Shown here one piece after another: positions 18,043 through 58,329 of a DNA stretch of 58,634 nucleotides. The DNA is taken from IMG/VR virus record IMGVR_UViG_3300033552_000007, positions 1 through 58,634 of that record. One strand, given 5' to 3'. The notes under the pieces are model-generated. The model did no database searches. It was not told where the DNA came from and saw only the letters and a list, made by a program, of their open reading frames with translations. A program made the position numbers and the translations under genes. Position 1 is the first letter of the stretch. Each line of letters opens with the position of its first letter. The stretch comes from a virus. Its lineage: Duplodnaviria > Caudoviricetes.

Positions 18043-18375
18043 ATGTTACTTACGTTATCAAAGCTTCTAATTTATGCGTCTTTACTCTTGCTTGCTTTTG
18101 GTTGCATCCAGACAGCCAATAAAATGAATAAAAGCTCTTGTGCATGCGAACGCCACGGAATGGCTGCAGTGATTGTTGGTTGTACCACTTTCTACCTCGC
18201 TTTATTTTACAACTTAACGCGAGAATATCTCATTCTTTCTTTAGTGCCGCTAATATCTGGCATTGCGCTTTGGTTGATTGTCAGCGATCCAAGTTCGCAT
18301 CATAAGTTCGATAAGATCGCTACTGACCTAAAAATGCGCGCAATCATGGCGCTAGAACTGATTAAAAAACTATGA
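18043..18375 (+). CDS. Membrane protein, holin/antiholin candidate
   Basis: Three hydrophobic segments; adjacent to the putative holin. Confidence 0.5.
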   Translation: MLLTLSKLLIYASLLLLAFGCIQTANKMNKSSCACERHGMAAVIVGCTTFYLALFYNLTREYLILSLVPLISGIALWLIVSDPSSHHKFDKIATDLKMRAIMALELIKKL

Positions 18376-18971
18376 CTGATACTAGGGTATTGGCTAAATC
18401 AAAAGAAATGGCTGAAAAAGTAAAGAAATTGAAAGTGGCGCCAAAGCAGAACAATAAAGGCGAATTACAACTTACTGGTAGAGCAAGTTCTTACACTCTT
18501 GAAATTGGTAATGCTATCTGTGAACAAATTGCAAACGGCGTAAGTTTACGCAAAATTTGCATGGCAGAAACAATGCCTGGAGCTTCAAGTGTATTCAGAT
18601 GGTTGAATGAGAATGTTAGCTTTCGGGAGCAATACGCGCGCGCCAAGGAAGAACAAGCTGAAACGCTGGCAGAAGAGATTATCGAGATTGCAGACGATTC
18701 AGCAAATGACACTTACATTGACGATAACGGAAATGTAAGAACAGACAATGAAGTTGTTGCACGTTCCCGCTTAAAAGTTGAAGCGCGTAAATGGGTAGCA
18801 TCAAAATTAAAACCGCATAAATACGGGGATTCAATCAATTTAAACCATTCTGGCAAGGTAGACCTAACTAATGAACAACTTGAATCTAAGCTTGCTCAGT
18901 TATTCAGAAAAGCAGGAATTACTGGCGCTGATGGAGTTGAAGAAATACCGGGCGGATCGACTAAAGATTAA
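18372..18971 (+). CDS. terS: Terminase small subunit (Sf6-like)
   Basis: ICEQIANGVSLRKIC...FREQYARAKE...EIIEIADD...RKWVASKLKPHKYGD. Confidence 0.9.
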   Translation: MTDTRVLAKSKEMAEKVKKLKVAPKQNNKGELQLTGRASSYTLEIGNAICEQIANGVSLRKICMAETMPGASSVFRWLNENVSFREQYARAKEEQAETLAEEIIEIADDSANDTYIDDNGNVRTDNEVVARSRLKVEARKWVASKLKPHKYGDSINLNHSGKVDLTNEQLESKLAQLFRKAGITGADGVEEIPGGSTKD

Positions 18972-19605
18972 AACCTTCTTTCAAGATGAAGGTGATTTTG
19001 GCCGTGCTAACTATCCAAAGCAGATGGAGTTCTTTGAAGCTGGCGATAAATATCGTGAGCGTTGTTTCATGGCTGGCAATCGAGTTGGTAAAACAATCGC
19101 AGGCGCTTTTGAGGTTACATCGCATTTAACAGGCGATTATCCGCATTGGTGGCTTGGTTATTACTTTGATCGTCCGATTAGAGCATGGGCCGCAGGCAAG
19201 ACGAACGAAACCACACGCGATATTGTGCAAGAAAAACTACTGGGCCAAGTGATTGGTTCTGGCCCAACAAAAGGCGTAAGCGGCACTGGCATGATACCAG
19301 GTGACTTAATCGGTGATATTAACTGGAAGCAGGGCGTACCTGATTTAGTTGATAACGTGATGATTAAGCATGTAAGCGGCGAATGGTCTATGTTGGGTTT
19401 TAAGAGTTATCAGCAAGGCCGTGGTTCATTTGAAGGCACCGAGCAAGATTTTATCTGGCTGGATGAAGAGCCGCCAATGGACGTTTACGGCGAATGTTTA
19501 ATAAGAACTGCCACTACAAACGGCAGGATTGTACTGACATTTACTCCGCTTGAAGGCATGAGCGAAACCGTGATGCAGTTTATACCGCAAGGCGTAGCTA
19601 CTTAA
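18871..19605 (+). CDS. terL: Terminase large subunit, N-terminal ATPase part (P22-like)
   Basis: Walker A AGNRVGKT, Walker B IWLDEE, coupling motif TFTP. Confidence 0.9.
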   Translation: MNNLNLSLLSYSEKQELLALMELKKYRADRLKIKTFFQDEGDFGRANYPKQMEFFEAGDKYRERCFMAGNRVGKTIAGAFEVTSHLTGDYPHWWLGYYFDRPIRAWAAGKTNETTRDIVQEKLLGQVIGSGPTKGVSGTGMIPGDLIGDINWKQGVPDLVDNVMIKHVSGEWSMLGFKSYQQGRGSFEGTEQDFIWLDEEPPMDVYGECLIRTATTNGRIVLTFTPLEGMSETVMQFIPQGVAT

Positions 19606-20393
19606 TGCCACACGTTACGAGTTCCCGCTATTTAGTAATGGCGGGTTGGGATGATATTCCCCATTTAGACGCAACGGTTAAGCGTGAGCTGCTAGATTCA
19701 ACCCCCGCTTATTTGCGCGATGCCCGTTCAAAAGGCGTCCCGACTTTAGGTAGTGGGCGCATTTTTACCGTTTCAGAAGAATTAATTAGCGTACTAGCGT
19801 TTGCAATCCCTAAGCACTGGCTTAGGATAAATGCGATTGACTTTGGTTGGGATCACCCATTCGGTTCTGTATGGATGGCCTATGATCGCGACACAGACAC
19901 GATGTATGTAACGGATACTTACCGTATGCGTGAATCAACCCCTGTTATCCATGCGGCCGCGATTAAGCCGCGTGGTGAGTGGATTCCAGTTGCTTGGCCG
20001 CATGATGGATTACAAAGCGAAAAAGGCAGTGGAATAGTATTGCAAAGGCAATATCGTGAACAAGGCTTGAATATGCTGGCCAATCATGCGCAATTTGTAC
20101 CAGAAGGCGCAGACGGTGAAACAAGAACTAGCCGCACATCGGTTGAGGCTGGATTGATTGGCATGCTGGATATGATGCAAACAGGCCGCTTTAAAGTGTT
20201 TAGCCATTTGAATGACTGGTTTGAAGAGTATCGCATTTACCACCGCAAAGACGGCAAGGTTGTTAAGTTGATGGATGACTTACTTTCTGCCACTCGATAC
20301 GGCTACATGACGATCAAGCAACACGGCGAAATTGAGCCGAAAGAAAAATTTAAAGCAATACCCCGAAGATTCTCATGGAAAGCAGGCGGTTAA
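19605..20393 (+). CDS. terL: Terminase large subunit, lid + C-terminal nuclease part
   Basis: GWDDIPHL, IDFGWDHP, AWPHDG, DDLLSATRY. Confidence 0.9.
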   Translation: MPHVTSSRYLVMAGWDDIPHLDATVKRELLDSTPAYLRDARSKGVPTLGSGRIFTVSEELISVLAFAIPKHWLRINAIDFGWDHPFGSVWMAYDRDTDTMYVTDTYRMRESTPVIHAAAIKPRGEWIPVAWPHDGLQSEKGSGIVLQRQYREQGLNMLANHAQFVPEGADGETRTSRTSVEAGLIGMLDMMQTGRFKVFSHLNDWFEEYRIYHRKDGKVVKLMDDLLSATRYGYMTIKQHGEIEPKEKFKAIPRRFSWKAGG

Positions 20394-45270: not shown

Positions 45271-48200
45271 ATGGCTGAAACCAACCAACAGAAAGTTAGC
45301 AGGATTGCGGTTCAAGAAGGTGTTGATCCAGACTTAGCTTTACGAGTGGCAAGCACGGAATCAGGATTTAATAGCAATGCCGTTAGTCCAAAAGGTGCGC
45401 GCGGCTTGATGCAAGTTATGCCAGCTACTTATCAAGAAGTCATGGGGCCAGATTCAGACCCTAATAATGTTGATAACAATGTGACGGCTGGCCTACGTTA
45501 TTTAGCCAAGCAACTAAAAACATTCAAAGGTGATGAAAGATTGAGTTTGGCCGCTTACAATGCAGGCGCCGGTGCGGTTAAGAAATACGGCGGCATACCA
45601 CCATACAAAGAAACTCAAGATTATGTCGCCAAGATCACCGGCGGCAAAGCACGCGCTACACCCGCAAAGCAAGGATATGAAGTAATTGGCTATAGTGATA
45701 TTGATGGCAACGACATACCACTAGAAAATCCCGTCAAAAAATCCGCGCCAGTAGCCGCAAAGAAAGCCGCGCCTTATGAAGTTATCGGCTATGAAGAAAT
45801 TGAAGCGCCAGCGCCAGCCGTTGCGCCGGTTGCGGAATCAGCCAATGCGACTTATGGCGACCGTGCAAAAGACTTGGGCATATCTACCGTTCAAGGCGTG
45901 GTTGATGTTGGACAAGCCGCTGTAGGTTTAGGTGATATTGTCAGTGGTGGACGAATTGGTAAACTGGCAGAGCAAGCCGGCGTAAAGTTTGAAGAAACCG
46001 ATCAAATACTTGAAGGCTTAAAATCAACCGCAGGCCAAGCCGACAAAGCCGCTTTAGATAATGCGCAAGGCTTTACTGATACCGCAAAAACTATTGTACA
46101 AAATCCAAACATTATCCCAAACGCGATTACGCGCACCATCCCTAGTATTTTAGGCGGTAGCGGAATTGCAAATGCTTTAGTTAAGCTAATGCCAAAAATC
46201 GGCGCAATCGCCGCAGGGGCAATCGGTGAAGGCGTTATTGGCGCAGGTAGTCAAGCAGAAGGCATCCGTTCGCAAACAGACGATGGATTAATCACGCCTA
46301 CGCAATCCGCATTATCGGCAGCAACAGGATTATCAACAGCCGTTATTTCAAGATTTAGCGGAAACTTTGCACAAAAGCTTGGCATTAAAGACATTGATAA
46401 TGTTTTAGTGAATGGTAGCGCCGAGCAAGTAGACGAAATAGTTAAAAAGTCACTAGGTCGCAAGTTGGTAGAAGGTGGTTTTACTGAATCTGTATTAGAA
46501 GAAATGCCGCAATCTGGCATTGAACAAATGCTATCTAACGTAGCGCTTGATAAACCAATTATGGAAGGTGTTGCAAAATCCGCCGCAATCGGTGGATTAA
46601 CAGCCGCCCCAATGGGTGCTGGTGCGCAATTAATTCCACAAGCACCAGCAATCCCCCAAACACGCGGCCAACGCATTATTGCTGAACTTAAAGCCCGTCA
46701 ATCTGGCCAGCCAGCAAGCACTGTTATTGCTGATGAAGTAATACCAGCCAGCCCAGCCAACCCTAGCGAATCAATTAACGCAGCCGATTTATTAGAGGAT
46801 GATAATGTCAGCAACACTGAACAAGGAGCCGCTAGTATTTTGGATAGCGGAATCGCTGGAAATGGGCGTGATAACCCAAGCGGAAGCGCAGTTAATGCAG
46901 TTAATGACGTTAATGGAATACGATCACCCGATATTGGACAGACCGTATCAAGCAATCTGCCTACTGGAAATGCCAACAGTGCAAATAGTCCACTAGACAA
47001 TCCAACGCCAGAGCCAAAAGCAACACTGGACGCACAAACTACCGCCTTTATCGAAGGCACTAAGCCAGCTTTACTAATTACCGAAGGCGAGGCATTACCG
47101 CAGAATCTACCAAATGACATTAAAACGGCTGTTATCCCTAATCGTGGCACACTTATTTATCGTGATGATATTAGCTTACAACAAGCGCTTAACGGCAATA
47201 TGGGCGAAGCTTTAGGTTATGGCATTAACGAGAAGCCAGCACAGCCCACAAGCGTTGTAACAGCGCGTGACGCTAACGGCACAGTCATTCAAGACGTTGC
47301 AACCGATGGCCGCCAAAGTGTGATTGATGCGGCAACGAAAGTAGCGGGCAATGGTACGGTTGAAGTTAGGCCGATTGAAGCGGCACTGGCAGAGCGTGAA
47401 GCAGGAGTTAAGGCCGCAGAAACGCCCGTTGGCAATATTGAAACGCCCGTTGGCATTGAAAATATGCCTAATGTGCCTAACATAACTAATAACCCAATAG
47501 TATCAAATACTTATTTAGGAAGTTCTGGCCGCCTAAAAACGCCTAAAATTGCCCAATCTGATTTAACACAACCAGCAACACCTGTTAAACCCAAAAAGCC
47601 AGCCAAGAAAGCAGGCACACTCTTAGCTACATTACGCGATATTGGCGGCATTGCACTTACTGATAAGCGCGATGTTACCGGCGAAGATAAGCGCTTTATT
47701 GGTGGTGGTTACAATCAAATATTCAAGGGCAGCGCCAAACAAACCTTGCGCGGCGCCATTGAAAGCGGCTTGCTTGATGAATTTTTACCTTACAGCATGC
47801 GCTTGTCTGCACAAACCGCAGATAGTGAAGCGTATGATTCAACAGAAGCGTATGATTACTTAGCGGATAAAATTCGCAACGGTACTCGCACGTTATCTTA
47901 TGAAGCCGAGCAAGAGCTTGAGCAAAAACGTTACGATGAAAAAACCGACACACAAGCCGCCGTTGATTTAATTGCCGAAGAATTTAATGAGGATGAAATA
48001 AATGCAGAACTCCAAATCGCAGGGTACAACGAAAGAGAAGCTCAAAGCCTGGCTACAGACTTTGACGCCAGCAACGAGGATTCAAGTGTTGAAAGCGGCA
48101 CTGGAAGCCAAGCAAGCGAAAAAACCGAAAGCTTAACCAAAGATCAGGCAGATGGCTTTGTAAAAGTAGCCGCAGATTCAATTAAAACATTACGCAAGCA

Positions 48201-51200
48201 AGATGTTGAGCGCGTATTGGACGAAACGCCATCTAAGTACAGAAAAGAATTAGCAGCCTACATTACAAAAAACCGTAGTGATTTAGCCGAAGAAGTAGCC
48301 GATATTGAGGCAGAAGCCCCCGCTTTAGAACTTCAAGGCCAAACTAACGCCGAAATTGAAGCCGACATAAAAGCTACACGCGACCGTGAAGTCAAAGCCG
48401 CAGCCGATGAAGCCAAAGCCAAATCCGCAAAAGACGCGGAAGATTTAAAAACCCAGCAAAAGAAAAATGCCAACGAACGCCCGTTTGAGTTTGGCGAAAA
48501 CATCAAAGACGTTAAGCAAGCGGTTAAAGCTGGCAGTGAGGATATGTTCACGCTGGATGAAAAGAAAAAGGATGAACCAGCCGCACCAGTTGATGCCAAA
48601 GTAAAACAGGCGCAAGATGATTTAGACGGAGCATTAAGTGACTTAGGCAGTATTTTTGGCAAGTCTTTACGCAACAATATCACCCCAGAACAAGAGCAAA
48701 AGTTAATACCAGTATTAACACGCGTATTTGATGCCGCCTTTAGACTTGGTTACTATGAATTTAAAGCGGCGGCTAAATTTGTACTTGATACAATTAGGAG
48801 TAAGATAAGTGAAGAGGTTGCGGATATTGTCACGATTGACCAGTTGCAAGGTGCGTATATCAGCATGGCTGGCAAGTACGGCGACCAAGCAACTAAAAAA
48901 CGTGATGTAGTTAATATTGAAAGTATTGAAGAGTTACAGGAGAGCGATAATGTCAATGACAAGCGTAGCAGCGCCAATTTGGAATCAGATAGCGGACAGC
49001 CAGAGCCTACAAACGGCATGGGCGCGCAGAATGTTCAAGATGGACGGAATGAAAATAGCGGAAGCGGAAAACAAAGAGTATCAAACGCTGAAAACGAAAG
49101 TGATGCCCAAGGTAGCAACAGCTTATTTGACAGTCAAACCATTGTTACTGGAGAACGTGGCAATAGCGAAATTTACACAGGAAAATCCCCAACACAAAGC
49201 GGCCTTGCTAGAGATAGTGACAATCGCGGAAGCGGTGACGGTAGCTTCACAGGAACACCGATTGAACCGCCAGCAACAGAAGGACTTAACGGAACTACTC
49301 AAAGCGGATTATTCGCGCTAAGTGCCAAGCCATTACAGGCCGAAGCTGACCGCGTAGAGCAAAATACAACGCTTGATAATATACGTGAAACGTTGCCACT
49401 ACTGCAAGCTGGCCAACAAGAGGACGTATTTAAAGCCGAAACGCGCTTTGCTGAACCTAAAGGGTTCGGCATGTTATTTACCAACGGAACGGGTACAGGT
49501 AAAACCTTTACAGGGTTGGGCGTAGTAAAACGCTTTGTAAATTCTGGTAAGAAAAATGTATTAATCATTGCCCCCAATGACAAAATTATTGAAGATTGGC
49601 AAAACACAGCCAAACTATTCAATATCACGGCTAATCGCTTAGAAACCACAAATGATGCTGGACGCGGTGTAGTCATCACCACTTATTCAAACATGGGTAA
49701 CAACCTAACGCTTGCTGATCGCAATTGGGATTTAATCGTCCATGATGAAGCGCACTACTTGGCGATGGATAAAGACGGTACAAATACTAACGCACTTAAA
49801 ACGTTGCGCGCCATTACCCAGCACCCGCAAGGCGTTTTTACAAGAACAGAAATGCTACACCGAGATTTGCGCGCAAAAATAACCGCGCTGTATGAAGAGA
49901 AAAAAACGCTTACGATTGCCGCCGCAAGTGATGAACGCAATTATCCAAAACTTGAAAAAGTAGAAGCAGAGATTGAAGCGGCCAACCTTAAATGGAGTGC
50001 GGTGAGTGAGGCCGTTAAAGAAAAAGTAAAAGCCAACCAAGGCGAAGGCCGACCACGCGCATTATTCTTATCGGCCACACCGTTCGCGTATGAAAAAACA
50101 GTGGATTGGGCAAACGGCTATTTGTTTGATTATGACGCTGGCAAAGAACAGGATGGAGCAAGCGGTACGGGCAATAGGTCTTATAACACTGGCAGCAACC
50201 GCGATCAGTTTATGATGCAGAACTTCGGTTATCGCATGCGTTACAACAAGCTAACCGAGCCAGACGCCAAAGTAAACCGTGGTTTAATGCAACGCCAATT
50301 TAATACTTCGCTTAAAAAAGCAGGTACTTTATCGGGCCGCATGCTGGACGTTGAAGCCGATTATGACCGTAAATTTGTATTGATTGATTCTGCTATTGGC
50401 CGCCGCATTGATGAAGCTCTTGGATGGTTTAGAGAAAAGCGAGATTCACTAAAAACTAGTGGCTTAGTAAACCCGCGCGCCAACGCTTATAGCGATGTAG
50501 AAAAAATCATTTCTGACCAGTTTGATTACTTGTCACGCCGTTATTTGTTGGAAGCTATTAAAGCCAAAGAAGTGGTTGTGCATGTTAAAGAACACATGGC
50601 GCTTGGCCGCAAAGTGGTTGTATTCCATGACTACAAGAAAGGCGGCGGCTTTAACCCGTTTAATATTTCAGCGCGCTCTATGGGCCAAGATTGGACAACA
50701 AGCGGCGACACCCAAGCCATTAACGAAATAATTGAAGAGTTTAAATCCGAGTTTAAAGATTTAATCAATGCGCCAGATTTTAAATCATCTTCACCTATTG
50801 ACACGTTTAAACAAGCGTTCCCCGGTGTATTGCTATTTAACGGCGATGTACCAACAAAAGTACGCCGCGCCAATGTCGCTAAATTCCAAGACGATGCCAG
50901 CGGCCCACAAGTAATTTTAGTGCAATCAGCCGCAGGCAAAGAAGGCATTAGCTTACACGATACAACGGGCAAGCATGCGCGCGTATTGTTTAACTTAGGC
51001 CAACCAACGCAGCCGACAACTTCTATTCAGCAAGAGGGCCGCATTTATCGTACAGGGCAAGTAACAGACGCCATGTTCAGATACTTAAACACAGGTACAA
51101 ATTGGGAGCGCTGGGCGTTTGCCACAACGATTGCACAACGCGCCAGCGCCGCCGAGAACTTAGCGCTTGGCGAACAAGCGCGCGCATTAAAAGACGCCTT

Positions 51201-54200
51201 TATTAGCGGCTTTGAAGAATCAGACAGTTATCGTGCTGGTATGGAAAACGAAGGCAAGGGCGGTAAAGAACGTGACAAAGCCGCCAATGAAGCCTTAACC
51301 GAGTATGACCGTGCAAAAGCTTTTTACTACGGCACGCAAAAGAAAAACAGCAAGACCAAAGCCCAAGAGGGCGCTGATTACTTTGCCACACCAGAGCCAG
51401 TAGGCTTGAAAATGGTTGAGCTTGCCGACATTCGCCCAGGCGAAAAAGTGTTAGAGCCAAGCGCAGGACACGGCGCAATTGCAAGATGGTTCCCAGAAGG
51501 CGCAGACAAAACCGCGATTGAGCCTAGCAGCTTCTTACGCCCACGTTTGGCTATGGTATTTGATGGCGCTATCAATAGCGGTGATTTTGAAGATTTAAAC
51601 ACAATCAATAAATACGATGCCATTGTTATGAACCCGCCGTTTGGTACGGCTGGCAAGACAGCAATTGACCACATGGCTAAAGCCTCCAAGCACTTGAATG
51701 ACGGTGGCCGCATTGTGGCGCTTATTCCAGTAGGTTCAACCGATAAGAAATTTGATAAATGGTTTTATGAAACTGAAACTCGCCCGTTAAAACCTATTTT
51801 TGAAAAAGACGGCATGCAAGTGTTTGCCGGTGACACTGTAAAAATGGCTGGCTTTGGTAAAGACTATGAAATTAAAGACGTAGTTATTGACGATATTAGA
51901 GGCACGCAATTTTTTAGAACCAAAGGACAGTCAAAAGATAACGGTATAAATGCAGTAGCGCTTAAATCTGTTGATAAAATTGGTAAACGTACCGAAGAGT
52001 TTAGCCCCACAAAAGGCTTTACATTGGTTGCTGATATAAAGTTACCAAGCGTTACATTTGAGCGCGCTGGCACTGCCGTTAATACGCGCATTGTGGTAAT
52101 TGAAAAGTCAGAGAGCGCGCCGCAAATATCAAACCGTGATTACACGGACGTTACTGATATTAACGAATTGTTTGATCGTATGGAAACACTTGAAATTCCA
52201 GCGCGCGCGAAAGCCAAAGAAGCTGATAACGAAACTGACGCGGCCCCAGCACGCACAACCGGAAGCGAGGCTACACGCCAGAACGATCAAGCCGCGCGCG
52301 AACGTGATGCAAAGGCACTAGAAAGCGGTGCGATTGCGCAAGGGGGCGAGGCAGTTACATTTAAAATTGAAGGTGATAAGTTAATAACAAATGCGCCAGC
52401 CCAAACGATAACAACGTCCAAAGGCAAAGAGCTTGAAGGCGTATTTATTACTGATTCAAGTATTGGTTTATCTGCAATTAAAGAGGTAGATAGATTCACA
52501 TACTATGCAAAAGGCAAAGGCGCTGGCTACTTTGTGCGCTTACGCCATGTAGTGCGCCCAACGAGTGATGATGTTTCATTCAGCAACGCCGGCGCCCCCA
52601 CTTTCTACAGCGCATTAACGCGCGCCATTGATGCCATTCAAACGAAGAAAGCCGACCCTGTTATGTGGAAAGGTTTAATTAAAAACCTTGCACAAAAAGG
52701 CGTTAAGCCTGATGAAATTGAATGGACGGGGGTAACTGATTGGCTGGACTTGCAAACAGGCGCCGTGACTAAAGAGCAAGTGTTGGATTACTTGAATAGT
52801 AATGGCGTTGAAGTTAGCGAAACGATGCTTGGGAAAGATACAGGCACGACAGACCAAGACGTTATTGATTTTCAAGGGATTGAATCTACTGAATGGGCAG
52901 ATGCTAGTAATTCACAGCGCGATGAATGGCGTGAAGAGTTCTACAGTCAATCATCAATGTACGCGCCTGCAACCAAATACAGCCAATACACCGTACCAGG
53001 CGGCACGAACTACAAAGAGTTGTTGTTGACGTTGCCAGAAAAAGCGCCACCAAAATCTATTGTTGAATGGACTGAAAGAATTGCTGGTGAATGGAACGCT
53101 GATGCAGATGGTAGACAGTTTGGCATACTTGAAGAAGATAATAATTCTTTCTACGTGTATGAAAAAGATGGTGCATTAGGTAAAAAAGTAAAGAGCCTTG
53201 ATGACGCTAAATTGCAAGTTGAAAGCGCACTTGTAAAAAATAAAACTACCAAATATAAATCATCCCACTTCGATCAAGCCAACATACTAGCCCACGTCCG
53301 TTTTGACGAAAGATTAGATGCAGACGGTAACAAGGTTTTGTTTATTCACGAACTGCAATCGGATTGGTCTAGTGATGGGCGAAAAAAAGGATTTGTACGC
53401 ACATTATCTAATGTTGAAAAGGCGCGTAGTAAAGAGTTATCTAAAAAAATGGATGACTACATTACTGAAAATGGATCGCTTAAAGCCCAGCGCAATCGTT
53501 ATGGATTAAGTGAAACTGAATTATCTGAATGGTCTTTATTAGATATTCAAGACAAAGGAGAAGGCGTACCACGCGCACCATTCGTTGAAAAAACTGACGC
53601 ATACCTAGCTTTAGCCCTTAAACGCATGATGCGCTACGCAGCCGAAAACGGCTTTAATAAGGTGGCTATTATTAACGGGCAACAGGCCGCCGACCTTTAT
53701 GACCTTAGTAAACAGGTTGATAAAATTCGTGCTTTCAAAAGACCAGAAGGCACATACTTTATTACAGCAGATGGCAGAACACTATCTGATGAAATGAAGG
53801 AATCAGAACTTGAAGGCGCTGTTGGTAAAGATTTAGCAACAAAGATTATCAATGGTGATAATAAAAAATCTGACGGCTTTCAAGAATTTAAAGGTGTTGA
53901 CCTAAAAGTAGGCGGAGAGGGCATGCGGTTTTTTTACGATACTCTTGTGCCAAAAGTAGCCAAAGACGTACTCAAGAAAGTGGGCGGTAGTGTTGAAACT
54001 ATTAGCTTGTCTTCTGGAAAAGAAATCTATGCAATTATAAACAAAGTTACTGGTAATGAAATAGGTGGTGGTTACACCTTAAAGCAAGCTCAAGATAAAG
54101 TTAATAACGACCCAGACAATAAGTATGAATATTACAAAGTATCTGGCGGTGAAAACGCACAAACAGGCTTCACCATAACCCCCGATATGCGCAACAAAGT

Positions 54201-57200
54201 AATGCAAGGATTGCCGCTATTCAGCCAAGGCACCGGCACAGGCGGCCTTTTAATAGACGACATAAAAGCCGCCATCGCTAACGACATTTACGGCCAAGAG
54301 GTAGACATTTACCCAACTATGATGGACGCGCCAATATACGTGCAAACGCAGGCATTAAGCGAACGTAAGTTTGGTATTGAGGGCTTCTATGATAAACGTA
54401 CTAACCGAGTTGCATTAATCGCCAGCAATCTAAGCAGCATTAAACGTGCTAAAGAAGTGGCGCGCCATGAGCTAATCGGACATTACGGCATGGAAAACAT
54501 GCTTAACGATGCAGACCCTAAACTATTATCAAAACTGTTAAACCGTGTTTTATTTGCAGAAAAAAGCGGCAATAAACAAATTATTGAGATCGCTCAATAC
54601 GTAGATGAAACACAGCCTAATTTAAGCGAACAACGCCGCGCCAAAGAGATTATCGCGGTAATGGCCGAGCGCAATATTCAAAACAGTATTACTAAGCGCG
54701 TGATTGATGCAGTGCGTTTATTCTTGAAGAAAATAGGCTTTATTAAAAGCGATGTAACAGACGCTAAGATTGCAGGCTTATTGCGTGATGCGCAGGTTTA
54801 CTTGAAAGGCAAAGGTAGAAGCTTAGTTGAACCTACTATGCAGGCCAGTTTTAGCAATAACGCCACCAAAGACATACCAGATGCCATTATCTTAAATCCA
54901 CTTGGCACAGCAAAAAACGATACCGATTATGAGGCTGCAAAAGCAGGGGATGTAGTGGCCGCAACGCGACTTGCTAAAAAATTAATTACTAATGATGTAA
55001 TTAAACAATTGAAAGAGCAGATTAAAAATGCTGATTTAGTTGTTGGCGTTACTTCTATTGAACAAAGCGGAAAAAATGCGTTGCCAGAAGCGGCGGCTAT
55101 TTTAATTGCAGACAAACTGTCTCTAAAATACGATGAAAACTTATTGCAATTAGTGTCGCCCAAACGTACTGGCATGAGTGGGATGGACAGAATATTTAAT
55201 CGCCCTGTATTTGAAGGTGATGTACAACCTAACGCAAGTTATATTTTAGTAGACGATACCATTACACAAGGCGGCACATTTGCTGCGATGACTAATCGTA
55301 TTAATGAAGGCGGAGCAAATGTCATTGCTAATATTGCATTGACAGGCAAAGATTATAGTAGCAAGATTGCAATATCAGACAGCATGCTAGAAAAAGTACG
55401 TAGTCAATTTGGTGATTTAGAAAATGAATTTAGAGCGATTACAAAATACGGATTTGAAGGCCTTACTCATAGCGAAGCACGGTTCGTTACGCTTGGAAAC
55501 GCTCCTGACAAATTCCGAGATAGAATCATTGCTGAAACTAAAAAGGCGGCGAGCAATACAAATACGTCTACTGCTAAAGCAGGACAAGACGTAAGTTTTA
55601 GTAACAATCCAACGCCGCCTACGGGTGGCGTTTTCACGTCACAACAGCCCTTAAATCCTAACTTTGAAATCCCGCAAACAAGCAAGCTAGATAACGTACT
55701 GCGCAGCGTGCAAGACAAGAACATTGACTTGAAGCGCGTGACAGCTAACATCAAGAAAAGCATTGGCGATATTTCAGATAACATCAATGCCTACTTGCAA
55801 GAAGAGCTTTATCACGGACGCGCGGCCAAACGTACACAAGACTTTCTCAATAATGAATTGAACCCATTAATTACAGCCATGCAAACGCGTGGTGTGACCA
55901 TGGCGGACTTTGAGGAATACTTATGGGCCAGACACGCCGAAGAACGCAATATTCAGATCGCTAAAGTCAATCCAAAAATGCCAGACCGCGGCAGTGGTTT
56001 AACGACTAAAGAGGCTAACGACTACCTTAACAGTTTAAGCGCTGGCCAAAAACGCAACTTTGAAGCATTGGCCGCCAGAGTGGACGCCATTACCAAAGGT
56101 TCGCGCCAAGTGTTAGTTGATTACAATTTAGAATCAGCCGGCACAGTGTTATCCATGGAAGGCGCTTATAAAAACTACGTGCCGTTAATGCGTGAAGATA
56201 TGGATATGGGTTTCGGCCAAGGTACTGGCCAAGGCGTTAGCGTTAAAGGTAATAGCAGCAAGCGTGCAACCGGTTCTAATCGTGCCGTGGTGGATATTCT
56301 GGCCAACATCGCCCAGCAACGTGAGCGCAACATTATTCGTGGTGAGAAAAATCGCGTGGCTACGGCCCTTGTTGGCCTTGCCAAAACGAATCCTAATAAA
56401 GACTTCTGGCAAGTTGATGTGCCGCCAACCATTACCGATATTAACAAAGCCACTGGCATGGTTGAGGTGCGCATTGACCCTAATTACAAAAATCGTAATA
56501 ACGTGGTTGTGGCCCGTATTGCCGATAAGAAAGGCAACATTCAAGAACGCGCCGTGGTATTTAGCGAGCGCAACGAGCGCGCCGTTAAGATGGCATTGAA
56601 TCTTAAAAACTTGGATCAAGACCAATTGGGTGTCGTGTTAAGCAATGCCGCGGTAATAACGCGCTGGTTCTCTAGTATTAACACGCAATACAACCCGATG
56701 TTCGGCGTAGTCAATATTATGCGTGATGTACAAGGCGCGCTGCTTAACTTGAGTTCAACGCCATTGAAAGGCATGCAAACTAAGGTATTGGCTGAAACGG
56801 CTAAAACCATTGGGCCGTTGTATGCTGAAATTCGCGCCATTCAGAAAAACGGCAAGTCTACTAATACGGACGTGGCCAGGCTGTATGAGGACTTTCAGCG
56901 CGAAGGCGGCAAAACAGGTTACCAAGATATGTTCCGCAACGCCGAAGAGCGTGGCAAAGCCATATCAAAAACGCTTGATCCTAATTGGTGGCAAACAACC
57001 AAGCTAGGTAAAGTGGTTTCGTTAAACGGCTTATTAGCTACGCCAGAACAATGGTTAATGCAAAAGCCAGTTAAGTTAATCTTTGATTGGCTGTCTGACT
57101 ACAACGAGGCGTTAGAAAACACAGTGCGCCTAGCGACTTACAAAGTTGGTTTGGATAAAGGATTAAGTAAACAACAAGCCGCCAGCGTTGCTAAAAACAT

Positions 57201-58329
57201 CAGTGTAAACTTTAACCGTAAAGGTACAGTTGGCGCGCAAGTAGGTTCGCTATATGCCTTCTTTAATGCGTCCGTGCAAGGTTCGGCCCGTATTGCTGAA
57301 ACGTTGATGGTAAACGATAACGGCAAGCTATCATTAAGCAAAACTGGTAAGAAAATTATTAGCGGTGGCTTATTGCTAGGCGCTATGCAAGCAATCGCCA
57401 TGGCAATGGCTGGCTTTGATGATGACGAACCGCCAGAGTTTGTGCGCGATAGAAACATCATTATCCCGTTATCCGGTGGCAAGTACGTGGCTATTCCTAT
57501 GCCATTAGGTTTCAATGCGATCCCGTCTATTGGACGCATCATGACTGAATGGGTGTTAAGTGGCGGCGAAGATACAGGCGGACGCGTAGTTCACATTCTG
57601 GACGTATTGTTAAACGTGACTAACCCGATTGGTAACGCTGGGCTTTCTATTCAAACGGTTGCACCTACTTTGATTGATCCATTGGTGGCTTTATCAGAAA
57701 ACAAAGACTTCACCGGCAGAAAGATTGCCAAAGAGGACTTTAACTCTAAGAATCCAACACCAGGCTATAGCCGTGCTAAAGATACGGCCAGCCGATTCTC
57801 TACAGGTATTGCGTACTTTATCAATAGCGCAACGGGTGGCAATAAGTACCGTGAAGGCGCCATTAGCCCAACACCAGACCAGATTGATTATTTATTTGGC
57901 CAAGTGACCGGCGGCGTAGGCCGTGAAGGTAGCAAGATAATTGGTGCGTTAGATTCTCTTGCTATTGGCGAAGATATACCCAACTACAAAAAACCGTTAA
58001 TAGGTAAATTTTACGGCAACGCAAAGAATAACGATGCAGAGCGCACCACTTACTATGACAACGTAGTGGAGTTAAATAAACTTGAGCTTGAATATAAAGG
58101 ACGCTTAGAAAGCAAAGACGAGCTAGACGAATTTAAGACGGACAATCCAAAGGTTAAAGCGATTATGCTGGGTAACAATACCGATAAGATTGTGACTAAA
58201 TTAGTCAAGCAACGTAAACAGTTGCAAGCCAGCGGCGCATCATCAGATCGTATCAAACAAATTAATGAATTGATTGCGTTGAAAATGAAGCGATTAAACG
58301 AGGCCGTTAGAAAAATAGAAGCCGAATAA
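45271..58329 (+). CDS. 4352-aa polyvalent (DarB-like) injected protein: SLT transglycosylase, SF2 helicase, N6-adenine MTase, HELQSDW domain, zincin-like peptidase, PRTase, LPD38-like C-terminus
   Basis: ESGF..AVSPKGARGLMQ/AYNAG; GTGTGKT, DEAH, SAT, QQEGRIYR; LEPSAGHG, MNPPF; HELIGH (54466-54483); LVDDTITQGGT. Confidence 0.9.
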   Translation: MAETNQQKVSRIAVQEGVDPDLALRVASTESGFNSNAVSPKGARGLMQVMPATYQEVMGPDSDPNNVDNNVTAGLRYLAKQLKTFKGDERLSLAAYNAGAGAVKKYGGIPPYKETQDYVAKITGGKARATPAKQGYEVIGYSDIDGNDIPLENPVKKSAPVAAKKAAPYEVIGYEEIEAPAPAVAPVAESANATYGDRAKDLGISTVQGVVDVGQAAVGLGDIVSGGRIGKLAEQAGVKFEETDQILEGLKSTAGQADKAALDNAQGFTDTAKTIVQNPNIIPNAITRTIPSILGGSGIANALVKLMPKIGAIAAGAIGEGVIGAGSQAEGIRSQTDDGLITPTQSALSAATGLSTAVISRFSGNFAQKLGIKDIDNVLVNGSAEQVDEIVKKSLGRKLVEGGFTESVLEEMPQSGIEQMLSNVALDKPIMEGVAKSAAIGGLTAAPMGAGAQLIPQAPAIPQTRGQRIIAELKARQSGQPASTVIADEVIPASPANPSESINAADLLEDDNVSNTEQGAASILDSGIAGNGRDNPSGSAVNAVNDVNGIRSPDIGQTVSSNLPTGNANSANSPLDNPTPEPKATLDAQTTAFIEGTKPALLITEGEALPQNLPNDIKTAVIPNRGTLIYRDDISLQQALNGNMGEALGYGINEKPAQPTSVVTARDANGTVIQDVATDGRQSVIDAATKVAGNGTVEVRPIEAALAEREAGVKAAETPVGNIETPVGIENMPNVPNITNNPIVSNTYLGSSGRLKTPKIAQSDLTQPATPVKPKKPAKKAGTLLATLRDIGGIALTDKRDVTGEDKRFIGGGYNQIFKGSAKQTLRGAIESGLLDEFLPYSMRLSAQTADSEAYDSTEAYDYLADKIRNGTRTLSYEAEQELEQKRYDEKTDTQAAVDLIAEEFNEDEINAELQIAGYNEREAQSLATDFDASNEDSSVESGTGSQASEKTESLTKDQADGFVKVAADSIKTLRKQDVERVLDETPSKYRKELAAYITKNRSDLAEEVADIEAEAPALELQGQTNAEIEADIKATRDREVKAAADEAKAKSAKDAEDLKTQQKKNANERPFEFGENIKDVKQAVKAGSEDMFTLDEKKKDEPAAPVDAKVKQAQDDLDGALSDLGSIFGKSLRNNITPEQEQKLIPVLTRVFDAAFRLGYYEFKAAAKFVLDTIRSKISEEVADIVTIDQLQGAYISMAGKYGDQATKKRDVVNIESIEELQESDNVNDKRSSANLESDSGQPEPTNGMGAQNVQDGRNENSGSGKQRVSNAENESDAQGSNSLFDSQTIVTGERGNSEIYTGKSPTQSGLARDSDNRGSGDGSFTGTPIEPPATEGLNGTTQSGLFALSAKPLQAEADRVEQNTTLDNIRETLPLLQAGQQEDVFKAETRFAEPKGFGMLFTNGTGTGKTFTGLGVVKRFVNSGKKNVLIIAPNDKIIEDWQNTAKLFNITANRLETTNDAGRGVVITTYSNMGNNLTLADRNWDLIVHDEAHYLAMDKDGTNTNALKTLRAITQHPQGVFTRTEMLHRDLRAKITALYEEKKTLTIAAASDERNYPKLEKVEAEIEAANLKWSAVSEAVKEKVKANQGEGRPRALFLSATPFAYEKTVDWANGYLFDYDAGKEQDGASGTGNRSYNTGSNRDQFMMQNFGYRMRYNKLTEPDAKVNRGLMQRQFNTSLKKAGTLSGRMLDVEADYDRKFVLIDSAIGRRIDEALGWFREKRDSLKTSGLVNPRANAYSDVEKIISDQFDYLSRRYLLEAIKAKEVVVHVKEHMALGRKVVVFHDYKKGGGFNPFNISARSMGQDWTTSGDTQAINEIIEEFKSEFKDLINAPDFKSSSPIDTFKQAFPGVLLFNGDVPTKVRRANVAKFQDDASGPQVILVQSAAGKEGISLHDTTGKHARVLFNLGQPTQPTTSIQQEGRIYRTGQVTDAMFRYLNTGTNWERWAFATTIAQRASAAENLALGEQARALKDAFISGFEESDSYRAGMENEGKGGKERDKAANEALTEYDRAKAFYYGTQKKNSKTKAQEGADYFATPEPVGLKMVELADIRPGEKVLEPSAGHGAIARWFPEGADKTAIEPSSFLRPRLAMVFDGAINSGDFEDLNTINKYDAIVMNPPFGTAGKTAIDHMAKASKHLNDGGRIVALIPVGSTDKKFDKWFYETETRPLKPIFEKDGMQVFAGDTVKMAGFGKDYEIKDVVIDDIRGTQFFRTKGQSKDNGINAVALKSVDKIGKRTEEFSPTKGFTLVADIKLPSVTFERAGTAVNTRIVVIEKSESAPQISNRDYTDVTDINELFDRMETLEIPARAKAKEADNETDAAPARTTGSEATRQNDQAARERDAKALESGAIAQGGEAVTFKIEGDKLITNAPAQTITTSKGKELEGVFITDSSIGLSAIKEVDRFTYYAKGKGAGYFVRLRHVVRPTSDDVSFSNAGAPTFYSALTRAIDAIQTKKADPVMWKGLIKNLAQKGVKPDEIEWTGVTDWLDLQTGAVTKEQVLDYLNSNGVEVSETMLGKDTGTTDQDVIDFQGIESTEWADASNSQRDEWREEFYSQSSMYAPATKYSQYTVPGGTNYKELLLTLPEKAPPKSIVEWTERIAGEWNADADGRQFGILEEDNNSFYVYEKDGALGKKVKSLDDAKLQVESALVKNKTTKYKSSHFDQANILAHVRFDERLDADGNKVLFIHELQSDWSSDGRKKGFVRTLSNVEKARSKELSKKMDDYITENGSLKAQRNRYGLSETELSEWSLLDIQDKGEGVPRAPFVEKTDAYLALALKRMMRYAAENGFNKVAIINGQQAADLYDLSKQVDKIRAFKRPEGTYFITADGRTLSDEMKESELEGAVGKDLATKIINGDNKKSDGFQEFKGVDLKVGGEGMRFFYDTLVPKVAKDVLKKVGGSVETISLSSGKEIYAIINKVTGNEIGGGYTLKQAQDKVNNDPDNKYEYYKVSGGENAQTGFTITPDMRNKVMQGLPLFSQGTGTGGLLIDDIKAAIANDIYGQEVDIYPTMMDAPIYVQTQALSERKFGIEGFYDKRTNRVALIASNLSSIKRAKEVARHELIGHYGMENMLNDADPKLLSKLLNRVLFAEKSGNKQIIEIAQYVDETQPNLSEQRRAKEIIAVMAERNIQNSITKRVIDAVRLFLKKIGFIKSDVTDAKIAGLLRDAQVYLKGKGRSLVEPTMQASFSNNATKDIPDAIILNPLGTAKNDTDYEAAKAGDVVAATRLAKKLITNDVIKQLKEQIKNADLVVGVTSIEQSGKNALPEAAAILIADKLSLKYDENLLQLVSPKRTGMSGMDRIFNRPVFEGDVQPNASYILVDDTITQGGTFAAMTNRINEGGANVIANIALTGKDYSSKIAISDSMLEKVRSQFGDLENEFRAITKYGFEGLTHSEARFVTLGNAPDKFRDRIIAETKKAASNTNTSTAKAGQDVSFSNNPTPPTGGVFTSQQPLNPNFEIPQTSKLDNVLRSVQDKNIDLKRVTANIKKSIGDISDNINAYLQEELYHGRAAKRTQDFLNNELNPLITAMQTRGVTMADFEEYLWARHAEERNIQIAKVNPKMPDRGSGLTTKEANDYLNSLSAGQKRNFEALAARVDAITKGSRQVLVDYNLESAGTVLSMEGAYKNYVPLMREDMDMGFGQGTGQGVSVKGNSSKRATGSNRAVVDILANIAQQRERNIIRGEKNRVATALVGLAKTNPNKDFWQVDVPPTITDINKATGMVEVRIDPNYKNRNNVVVARIADKKGNIQERAVVFSERNERAVKMALNLKNLDQDQLGVVLSNAAVITRWFSSINTQYNPMFGVVNIMRDVQGALLNLSSTPLKGMQTKVLAETAKTIGPLYAEIRAIQKNGKSTNTDVARLYEDFQREGGKTGYQDMFRNAEERGKAISKTLDPNWWQTTKLGKVVSLNGLLATPEQWLMQKPVKLIFDWLSDYNEALENTVRLATYKVGLDKGLSKQQAASVAKNISVNFNRKGTVGAQVGSLYAFFNASVQGSARIAETLMVNDNGKLSLSKTGKKIISGGLLLGAMQAIAMAMAGFDDDEPPEFVRDRNIIIPLSGGKYVAIPMPLGFNAIPSIGRIMTEWVLSGGEDTGGRVVHILDVLLNVTNPIGNAGLSIQTVAPTLIDPLVALSENKDFTGRKIAKEDFNSKNPTPGYSRAKDTASRFSTGIAYFINSATGGNKYREGAISPTPDQIDYLFGQVTGGVGREGSKIIGALDSLAIGEDIPNYKKPLIGKFYGNAKNNDAERTTYYDNVVELNKLELEYKGRLESKDELDEFKTDNPKVKAIMLGNNTDKIVTKLVKQRKQLQASGASSDRIKQINELIALKMKRLNEAVRKIEAE
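46805..46996 (+). CDS. Nested +1-frame ORF 1 inside the giant gene (63 aa)
   Basis: GAGG 6 nt before the ATG; coincides with an S/G/N-rich linker of the host frame. Confidence 0.5.
   Translation: MSATLNKEPLVFWIAESLEMGVITQAEAQLMQLMTLMEYDHPILDRPYQAICLLEMPTVQIVH
48002..48136 (+). CDS. Nested +1-frame ORF 2 inside the giant gene (44 aa)
   Basis: GAGGAT 7 nt before the ATG; amphipathic KEKLKAWLQTLTPATRIQVLKAALEAK. Confidence 0.5.
   Translation: MQNSKSQGTTKEKLKAWLQTLTPATRIQVLKAALEAKQAKKPKA
48950..49321 (+). CDS. Nested +1-frame ORF 3 inside the giant gene (123 aa)
   Basis: AGGAG 7 nt before the ATG; globular-looking helical sequence; spans the linker before the helicase. Confidence 0.65.
   Translation: MSMTSVAAPIWNQIADSQSLQTAWARRMFKMDGMKIAEAENKEYQTLKTKVMPKVATAYLTVKPLLLENVAIAKFTQENPQHKAALLEIVTIAEAVTVASQEHRLNRQQQKDLTELLKADYSR
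55424..55594 (+). CDS. Nested +1-frame ORF 4 inside the giant gene (56 aa)
   Basis: MNLERLQNTDLKALLIAKHGSLRLETLLTNSEIESLLKLKRRRAIQIRLLLKQDKT; TTGACA upstream, terminator downstream. Confidence 0.5.
   Translation: MNLERLQNTDLKALLIAKHGSLRLETLLTNSEIESLLKLKRRRAIQIRLLLKQDKT
55611..55634 (+). terminator. Intragenic intrinsic-terminator-like hairpin
   Basis: acgccgcc-TACG-ggtggcgt plus ttt (cUACGg tetraloop). Confidence 0.55.

Follow-up and report, generated by a model that had tools for sequence, protein, structure and literature searches.

A widely conserved +1-frame gene very probably nested in the giant polyvalent virion gene of a tailed phage

We describe ORF3, an open reading frame (ORF) lying wholly inside a 13-kb late gene of a virus of the Caudoviricetes (Duplodnaviria; IMG/VR record IMGVR_UViG_3300033552_000007). 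This record is complete, at 58,634 bp, and bears direct terminal repeats; it was analyzed over its whole length and is called the window below. It is highly probable that this late gene, which we call the giant gene (Table 1), encodes a polyvalent virion protein and also contains, in the +1 frame of the same strand, one or more independent genes. Purifying selection across ORF3 acts on the ORF3 frame, the giant frame there being just kept free of stops, and the comparison of related loci identifies ORF3 as a real, widely conserved nested gene. A preliminary description of the window had listed four ATG-initiated ORFs in the +1 frame of the giant gene (ORF1 to ORF4) and proposed that the apparent linkers of the giant protein carry a second layer of small genes missed by standard annotation. 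All four ORFs are present, each inside a longer gene, on the same strand and in another frame. As for the proposed layer, ORF3 bears it out, ORF1 is a probable member and ORF2 a possible one, and ORF4 lends it no support. The word "overprinted," used there of the nested genes, may point the wrong way: it is the ORF3 frame that carries the amino-acid constraint, and the giant frame is the one that is kept open.

Selection in the ORF3 frame

The first comparison set comprised 19 loci with related giant genes (35-65% protein identity), in 18 of which tblastn found an ORF3 match, at E values from 1e-10 to 2e-46 and each in frame +1 relative to the giant ORF of its locus; matches were present in 71 of the 80 loci of a wider set. 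In the first loci, each ORF3 homolog opens with an ATG aligned to residue 1 of ORF3, the residue at which conservation starts, and stops ~122 codons on. Among 13 non-redundant homologs, amino-acid identity is 0.51 in the ORF3 frame, compared with 0.33 (giant frame) and 0.34 (third frame) in the two others, and nucleotide diversity at ORF3 codon positions 1, 2, and 3 is 0.38, 0.32, and 0.51. A phase-switch test, in which the nucleotide alignment was built blind to frame and read in 90-nt segments, gives the same picture along the gene: variability peaks at giant position 3 in each segment up to 48875-48964, at giant position 1 (that is, ORF3 position 3) in all segments covering 48920-49369, and at giant position 3 once more from 49325 on. 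The giant frame has no stop over ORF3 in any of the 13 homologs (probability of staying open in ORF3-synonymous shuffles 0.005-0.69), and the third frame has 7-17.

We find the same arrangement at larger scale. A profile scan of viral contigs placed the ORF3 homolog in the +1 frame of an open long ORF in 52 of 52 loci, with a long ORF of at least 1000 codons in 51 of them and 4-25 stops in the third frame. Across 58 non-redundant loci, the giant frame contains no stop over the last 120 ORF3 codons, the third frame contains 9.8 on average, and ORF3-synonymous shuffles give a median probability of zero giant-frame stops of 0.19 per locus, the log10 probabilities summing to -50. In a further, unbiased scan, 76 non-redundant giant genes yielded 1149 nested ATG-ORFs, which fall into 125 similarity clusters; with a margin of 0.05, conservation in the nested frame exceeds that in the giant frame in six clusters, the remaining 119 being marked as by-products, and the largest of the six is the ORF3 family (61 ORFs from 58 loci).

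The family extends well beyond these loci. A profile search of 1.84 billion representative proteins returned 539 matches at E ≤ 1e-3 and 385 at E ≤ 1e-10, most of them 118-130 amino acids (aa) long and aligned from their own first residue, and recovered the family down to ~30% identity. Gene callers have thus far called such relatives occasionally, mostly on short contigs, and none has been named. The RefSeq genomes of Serratia phage Parlo (E 3e-36) and Pseudomonas phage Skulduggery (E 2e-33) carry the family with only the giant coding sequence annotated (the Skulduggery homolog lies at 1649-2101 of locus L074), and Ruegeria phage 45A6, Klebsiella phage ZX1, two Vibrio phages, and a Comamonas plasmid likewise match ORF3 at places where only the giant gene is annotated.

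How ORF3 would be reached by ribosomes is indicated by its 5' end. The preliminary description had proposed that conservation of ORF and Shine-Dalgarno (SD) site and purifying selection in the +1 frame be sought in homologs, and for ORF3 these are found among the related loci: all 55 distinct copies have ATG as their aligned first codon, 46 of them behind an SD-like core, and the copies are 121-143 aa long. A programmed +1 frameshift offers another way to read the same codons, yielding a truncated isoform made of the N-terminal 1226 aa of the giant protein plus ORF3, akin to the G/GT proteins of tail chaperones; it would agree with the location of ORF3 on the same strand in the +1 frame, with its conserved stop, and with database proteins that fuse the ORF3 domain to other parts. 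The frame upstream of the ATG is, however, open for a median of just 13 codons, a stop lies directly before the ATG in 10 of the 55 distinct copies, and conservation begins at residue 1. The conserved ATG and SD-like core, taken with these stops, therefore favor independent initiation over a frameshift isoform, which we consider very unlikely.

Other features claimed for these ORFs are also present. SD-like cores are present before ORF1, ORF2, and ORF3 (Table 1), the start context GATAATGTCA is common to ORF1 and ORF3, and the giant protein is rich in Ser, Gly, Asn, and Asp across these two ORFs, with a combined share of 0.52 over ORF1 and 0.46 over ORF3 versus 0.22-0.25 in the 60 residues on either side; the share is 0.38 over ORF2 and 0.25 over ORF4. 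The SD sites of ORF1-3 are unusual: such a core precedes 5 of the 151 +1-frame ATGs of the giant gene, and these ORFs account for three of the five. By codon-usage score, ORF3 ranks first, ORF2 second, ORF1 fourth, and ORF4 tenth among the 17 ATG-ORFs of at least 40 aa in the +1 frame.

ORF length alone is unremarkable. The 17 ORFs include lengths of 63, 75, 63, 61, and 60 aa, and in 2000 synonymous shuffles of the giant gene that preserve codon-junction context, a +1 ATG-ORF of at least 123 aa arises somewhere in the gene in 16%; the probability that the region stays open is 0.03 for ORF1, 0.53 for ORF2, 0.06 for ORF3, and 0.20 for ORF4. Stops in the +1 frame need T at codon position 2, as found in codons for hydrophobic residues, so linkers poor in such residues leave this frame open, and T occupies that position in 0.13-0.19 of the codons in the four ORF regions against 0.25 gene-wide. 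It follows that all four ORFs could in principle be products of chance, with Glu, Asp, and Gly codons imitating SD sites, and ORF4 has the properties expected of such a product (see below). Comparative evidence was needed because hydrophobic-poor linkers alone could produce the open frames, and it excludes chance for ORF3, through frame-specific conservation, the phase switch, and the retention of ATG, SD-like core, and stop in 55-58 diverged loci, as well as for the ORF1-like family in its core set. We give chance as the origin of all four even less credence than the frameshift. Least credible of all is an RNA or DNA element in the connector (a structure or regulatory site) with no second protein, since the stretch, although less diverse overall than the flanking wobble positions, varies with a clean period of three bases in the ORF3 frame for 370 nt and has a conserved start and stop, a confident predicted fold, and a family recoverable at the protein level to ~30% identity.

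Several points weigh against reading ORF3 as a gene, or limit what can be said of it. Its codon-usage score of +0.01 is far under the 0.61 ± 0.16 of ordinary genes, and its probability of staying open in the window alone is no smaller than the 0.06 given above. Its predicted fold has no known relative, nor does its sequence fall into a named family, and the function proposed for it below is tentative. P1 darB and Bcep22 gp75 contain no ORF3-like ORF, which shows that DarB-like genes do not all carry the nested gene. Strong tblastn matches also arise when conserved regions are translated in alternative frames, down to 9e-53 for an antisense frame of the helicase region; similarity alone proves nothing, and the frame-discriminating tests were used for that reason. 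The same antisense frame of the giant gene also holds ATG-ORFs of 141, 140, 134, and 125 aa. Such antisense "conservation" is to be expected wherever the sense strand is conserved, and searches for overlapping genes should beware of it.

The ORF3 product, which represents an undescribed family, is predicted to be compact and made up of seven helices. Its AlphaFold2 model, built from a 13-sequence alignment, has seven helices, a predicted local distance difference test score of 88.5, and a predicted template modeling score of 0.81. Foldseek with this model gave no match at E ≤ 0.001 in the PDB or BFVD, the ESM Atlas gave no usable match, the best E value in a sequence-profile search of the PDB was 0.71, and the peptides of ORF1-4 gave nothing significant in Pfam, PHROGs, or NCBIfam.

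The position of ORF3 within the giant gene is fixed as well. One and the same domain of the giant protein (the pre-ORF3 domain, Table 1) always precedes ORF3 and the helicase always follows it, and ORF3 and helicase distances correlate (rho 0.57, reached in 0 of 999 permutations). Two database proteins, P0018 (321 aa) and P0144 (232 aa), have an N-terminal ORF3 domain fused in frame to the pre-ORF3 domain, a Rosetta-stone hint that the two may touch; a search for the locus of P0018 found none. In a third protein, P0071 (557 aa), an N-terminal ORF3 domain is fused to an acidic repeated region.

Other nested reading frames

A second nested family, of ~62 aa (range 58-70 aa), is also recognized as real by sequence comparison. 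ORF1 resembles +1-frame ORFs of similar length in locus L009 (38% identity, same stop position), in L007, and in Parlo. A five-sequence ORF1-like profile retrieved 34 proteins of 58-70 aa, at E values of 1e-11 to 1e-25, from a collection of 5.8 billion, and a scan of viral contigs led by a core member located the family in the +1 frame of a giant ORF in nine further viral loci. A scan of the viral contigs with an alignment led by the window ORF1 confirmed none, and one with aa 300-800 of the giant protein, which flank ORF1, yielded no relatives. Identity within the core set reaches 0.48 for the nested frame versus 0.31 for the giant and 0.36 for the remaining frame, and the wobble falls at the nested third position whichever frame guides the alignment. 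In a four-sequence set that includes the window ORF1, the nested frame is again the best conserved (0.34 vs. 0.25 and 0.23).

The place of the window copy in this family is where doubt enters. It fails the hidden Markov model of the core family (E 2.3 among 13824 ORFs), and hhalign of the window ORF1 against the family gives a probability of 32% (P 4.8e-4); in addition, one ORF1-like member (L078, 5001-5189) has a TAG at the conserved W codon followed directly by an ATG, and may be a broken copy or have a shifted start. Position is no help in deciding membership, because the giant-protein domains that flank ORF1-like ORFs differ between loci. The earlier claim that ORF1 is a hidden gene thus stands for the family and stays weaker for the window copy, which we regard with fair confidence as a diverged member. 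ORF1 was also considered as a paralog of ORF3 and rejected (hhalign probability 0.1%).

For ORF2, a single match was found in the 80 loci, a 41-aa ATG-ORF in the +1 frame of L033 (E 0.001), located ~900 nt upstream of the L033 ORF3, as in the window. Over a gapless block of this pair, identity is 14/23 in the nested frame, 4/24 in the giant frame, and 7/23 in the third frame, and the differences at nested positions 1, 2, and 3 number 9, 7, and 14, counts that come from one pair. A Pro-containing helical motif like that of ORF2 recurs in weaker ORFs of L002/L003, L005, L032, and L040, and two of the six clusters that favor the nested frame are the pairs L002/L003 and L035/L037. Counting against ORF2 are its reliance on one match that was found by searching that very frame, which brings ascertainment bias, and the yield of its profile, just three proteins of 68-70 aa, which are probably kin of the L002 form; tblastn of ORF2 against phages gave no match. 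The proposal that ORF2 is a hidden gene has a syntenic homolog on its side and, on the other, a region that about half of the shuffles leave open and the lack of a further tblastn homolog, and the odds that it belongs to a third nested family seem to us about even.

The corresponding proposal for ORF4 is not borne out. ORF4 has no composition signature and no SD-like core, and no match to it was found in the 80 loci, in phages by tblastn, or in 11 further loci fetched with the ORF4 flanks. Half of it overlaps the end of a conserved domain of the giant protein, and in L084, a relative of 29% identity, the corresponding +1 frame is open without containing any Met. ORF4 is most probably a chance ORF.

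Three nested +1 pairs from related giant genes are candidates for additional families on the basis of their identities: L067 4507-4824 with L072 4129-4359 (0.89 nested vs. 0.68 giant), L081 5502-5831 with L083 5913-6242 (0.93 vs. 0.83), and L035 4786-5166 with L037 5224-5412 (0.50 vs. 0.40). Separately, at 56189-56599 of the window the +1 frame is open for 136 codons in a conserved, non-linker part of the giant gene, with its first ATG at 56417. This frame is left open in 0 of the 2000 context-preserving shuffles; the weak +1-frame matches to it in L025 and L050 may be by-products of giant-frame conservation.

The host gene and its surroundings

Judged by its domain set and its position in the late module, the giant gene is built as a polyvalent virion protein that includes a DarB-like helicase module. 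Several unrelated effector domains share one polypeptide (Table 1), and the gene closes a late module in which terminase, portal, major head, tail-fibre, and virion-protein genes lie upstream. Of the DarB-like helicase-methylase dyad, the helicase is clear and the methylase match is below threshold. Cultured-phage relatives found by tblastn carry the annotation DarB-like antirestriction protein, PLxRFG protein, or N-6 adenine methylase. A megablast search of phages with 46000-56000 gave no match.

Table 1. Coordinates in the window of the giant gene, its domains, the nested ORFs, and their SD-like cores
Feature	Position	Strand	Remarks
Giant polyvalent virion gene	45271-58329	+	4352 aa, 13 kb; hosts the nested ORFs
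SLT domain	45307-45618 (aa 13-116)	+	Pfam, above cut-off
SD-like core of ORF1	46795-46799	+	GAGGA
ORF1	46805-46996	+	+1 frame, 63 aa; further in-frame ATG at 46799
SD-like core of ORF2	47989-47993	+	GAGGA
ORF2	48002-48136	+	+1 frame, 44 aa, isoelectric point 10.5
Pre-ORF3 domain of giant protein	48568-48948 (aa 1100-1226)	+	Conserved, ~125 aa, without Pfam family
SD-like core of ORF3	48938-48942	+	AGGAG, 7-nt spacer to ATG
ORF3	48950-49321	+	+1 frame, 123 aa, 13.9 kDa, isoelectric point 9.2
ResIII/SNF2 domain	49447-49809 (aa 1393-1513)	+	Pfam, above cut-off
Helicase_C domain	50824-51213 (aa 1852-1981)	+	Pfam, above cut-off
Methylase-like stretch (MTS)	51592-51720 (aa 2108-2150)	+	Pfam, 18.8 bits, below 23-bit cut-off
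ORF4	55424-55594	+	+1 frame, 56 aa, without SD-like core
LPD38 domain	57424-57996 (aa 4052-4242)	+	Pfam, above cut-off

The connectors of the giant gene differ in length among close relatives. In a contig from run X2, 48121-48309 (189 nt) is swapped for 33 nt, an in-frame loss of 52 codons; the replacement starts at the last ORF2 codons, and the ORF2 frame again stops six codons on. Further length variants occur at 47417-47590 in three runs. Between the contigs of four runs and the window there are 716 variant places; 30 of the 40 listed fall at giant codon position 3, and all 40 lie upstream of ORF1.

Elsewhere in the window, TerL matches are split over two abutting ORFs, the N part at 18871-19605 and the C part at 19605-20393, and a 199-aa ORF at 18372-18971 overlaps 18871-19605 by 101 nt. 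TerL at 18871-20393 could be split, frameshifted, or intron-bearing.

Expression, function, and relation to known overlaps

ORF3 spans the S/G/N/D-rich connector that joins the pre-ORF3 domain (~125 aa) to the DarB-like SNF2-helicase/methylase module, and we infer that it is translated by internal initiation, from its own SD site and ATG, on the late mRNA of the giant gene; no sigma-70-like promoter stands out near the nested starts, with 2 sites found against 4.3 expected. The product may act with the adjoining DarB-like module, whether as an assembly or packaging helper, an inhibitor, or a regulatory subunit. The roles suggested for the nested products in the preliminary description, as chaperones or inhibitors specific to the SLT, helicase/MTase, and PRTase domains, are hypothetical. 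The connector appears to be the secondary, younger reading of this DNA, because it is the nested frame that carries the constraint and the confident predicted fold, and it may stem from a fusion of neighboring genes across a small gene. Among the loci examined, no free-standing (non-nested) copy of ORF3 was found.

A possible functional counterpart is the 17-kDa head protein Ulx, which in phage P1 "aids DarB localization" (PMC9024508; also PMC12810830). Like Ulx, which is needed with DarB, the predicted ORF3 product is small and encoded with a DarB-type helicase-methylase gene, and its role could be analogous, the likeness lying in this arrangement and not in sequence; P1 ulx differs in being a separate gene directly downstream of darB. 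Membership of ORF3 in the Ulx family was considered and rejected, the hhalign comparison of Ulx with the ORF3 profile giving a probability of 0.4% (E 0.15). The authors who described phage JC1 state that the P1 helpers Ulx, DdrA/B, and Hdf are without known homologs in such phages (PMC9144972).

Overlaps with a similar architecture are known. The gene Rz1 lies in the +1 frame of Rz. Like this embedded spanin gene of lambda-like phages (PMC9144972; PMC5295617), ORF3 is a whole gene inside another, on the same strand, in a different frame, and with its own start, and in both cases the two products may serve one function, as those of Rz and Rz1 do. The present case differs in its host, a 13-kb polyvalent virion gene, in its product, predicted to be soluble and helical whereas Rz1 is a lipoprotein, in a host frame that over the overlap is a low-complexity connector without amino-acid constraint, and in that up to three different nested families may share one gene. 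Small viruses have overlapping genes with one structured and one disordered product (PMC9119678, PMC8227390), and these divide the constraint between frames in the same way, with a folded protein set against a disordered stretch. The differences are that here the genome is that of a large double-stranded DNA phage, for which genome compression is not pressing, and that the disordered partner is the connector of a giant multidomain protein.

The host gene fits the polyvalent proteins of phages and conjugative elements (Iyer et al. 2017, PMC5512222) in its SLT domain, SNF2-type helicase with a methylase-like stretch, LPD38 domain, and late virion module. The main text of that paper differs from our account in that it mentions no overlap, frameshift, or linker, uses "nested" of a hairpin fold, and contains no second coding layer. 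In the full article texts searched, no gene nested in a DarB-like or polyvalent gene is described.

A fifth of these phage genomes is given over to DarB-like giant proteins, and the conserved 14-kDa product predicted from ORF3 would be a concrete candidate for their missing DarB helper. Embedded genes such as Rz1 are known; what is new here is a deeply conserved, unannotated family lying across the connector of giant antirestriction proteins. The ORF3 overlap is among the more deeply conserved same-strand overlaps in a large double-stranded DNA phage, and provides a clean case in which a predicted folded protein and a disordered connector share DNA. It also has a practical side, as gene callers discard such ORFs, and editing or deleting the "linkers" of a giant gene would unknowingly hit a second gene. 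We suggest, as a tentative extension that we think rather doubtful at present, that giant polyvalent proteins systematically carry a +1 layer of small genes (unrelated families of ~125, 62, and 45 aa, and others) across their disordered connectors, each serving the adjoining module as packaging helper, inhibitor, or subunit, and that the connectors arose from gene fusions across small genes that came to be read in another frame. If true, this would be a general route to building polyvalent proteins without losing the small genes between their parts.

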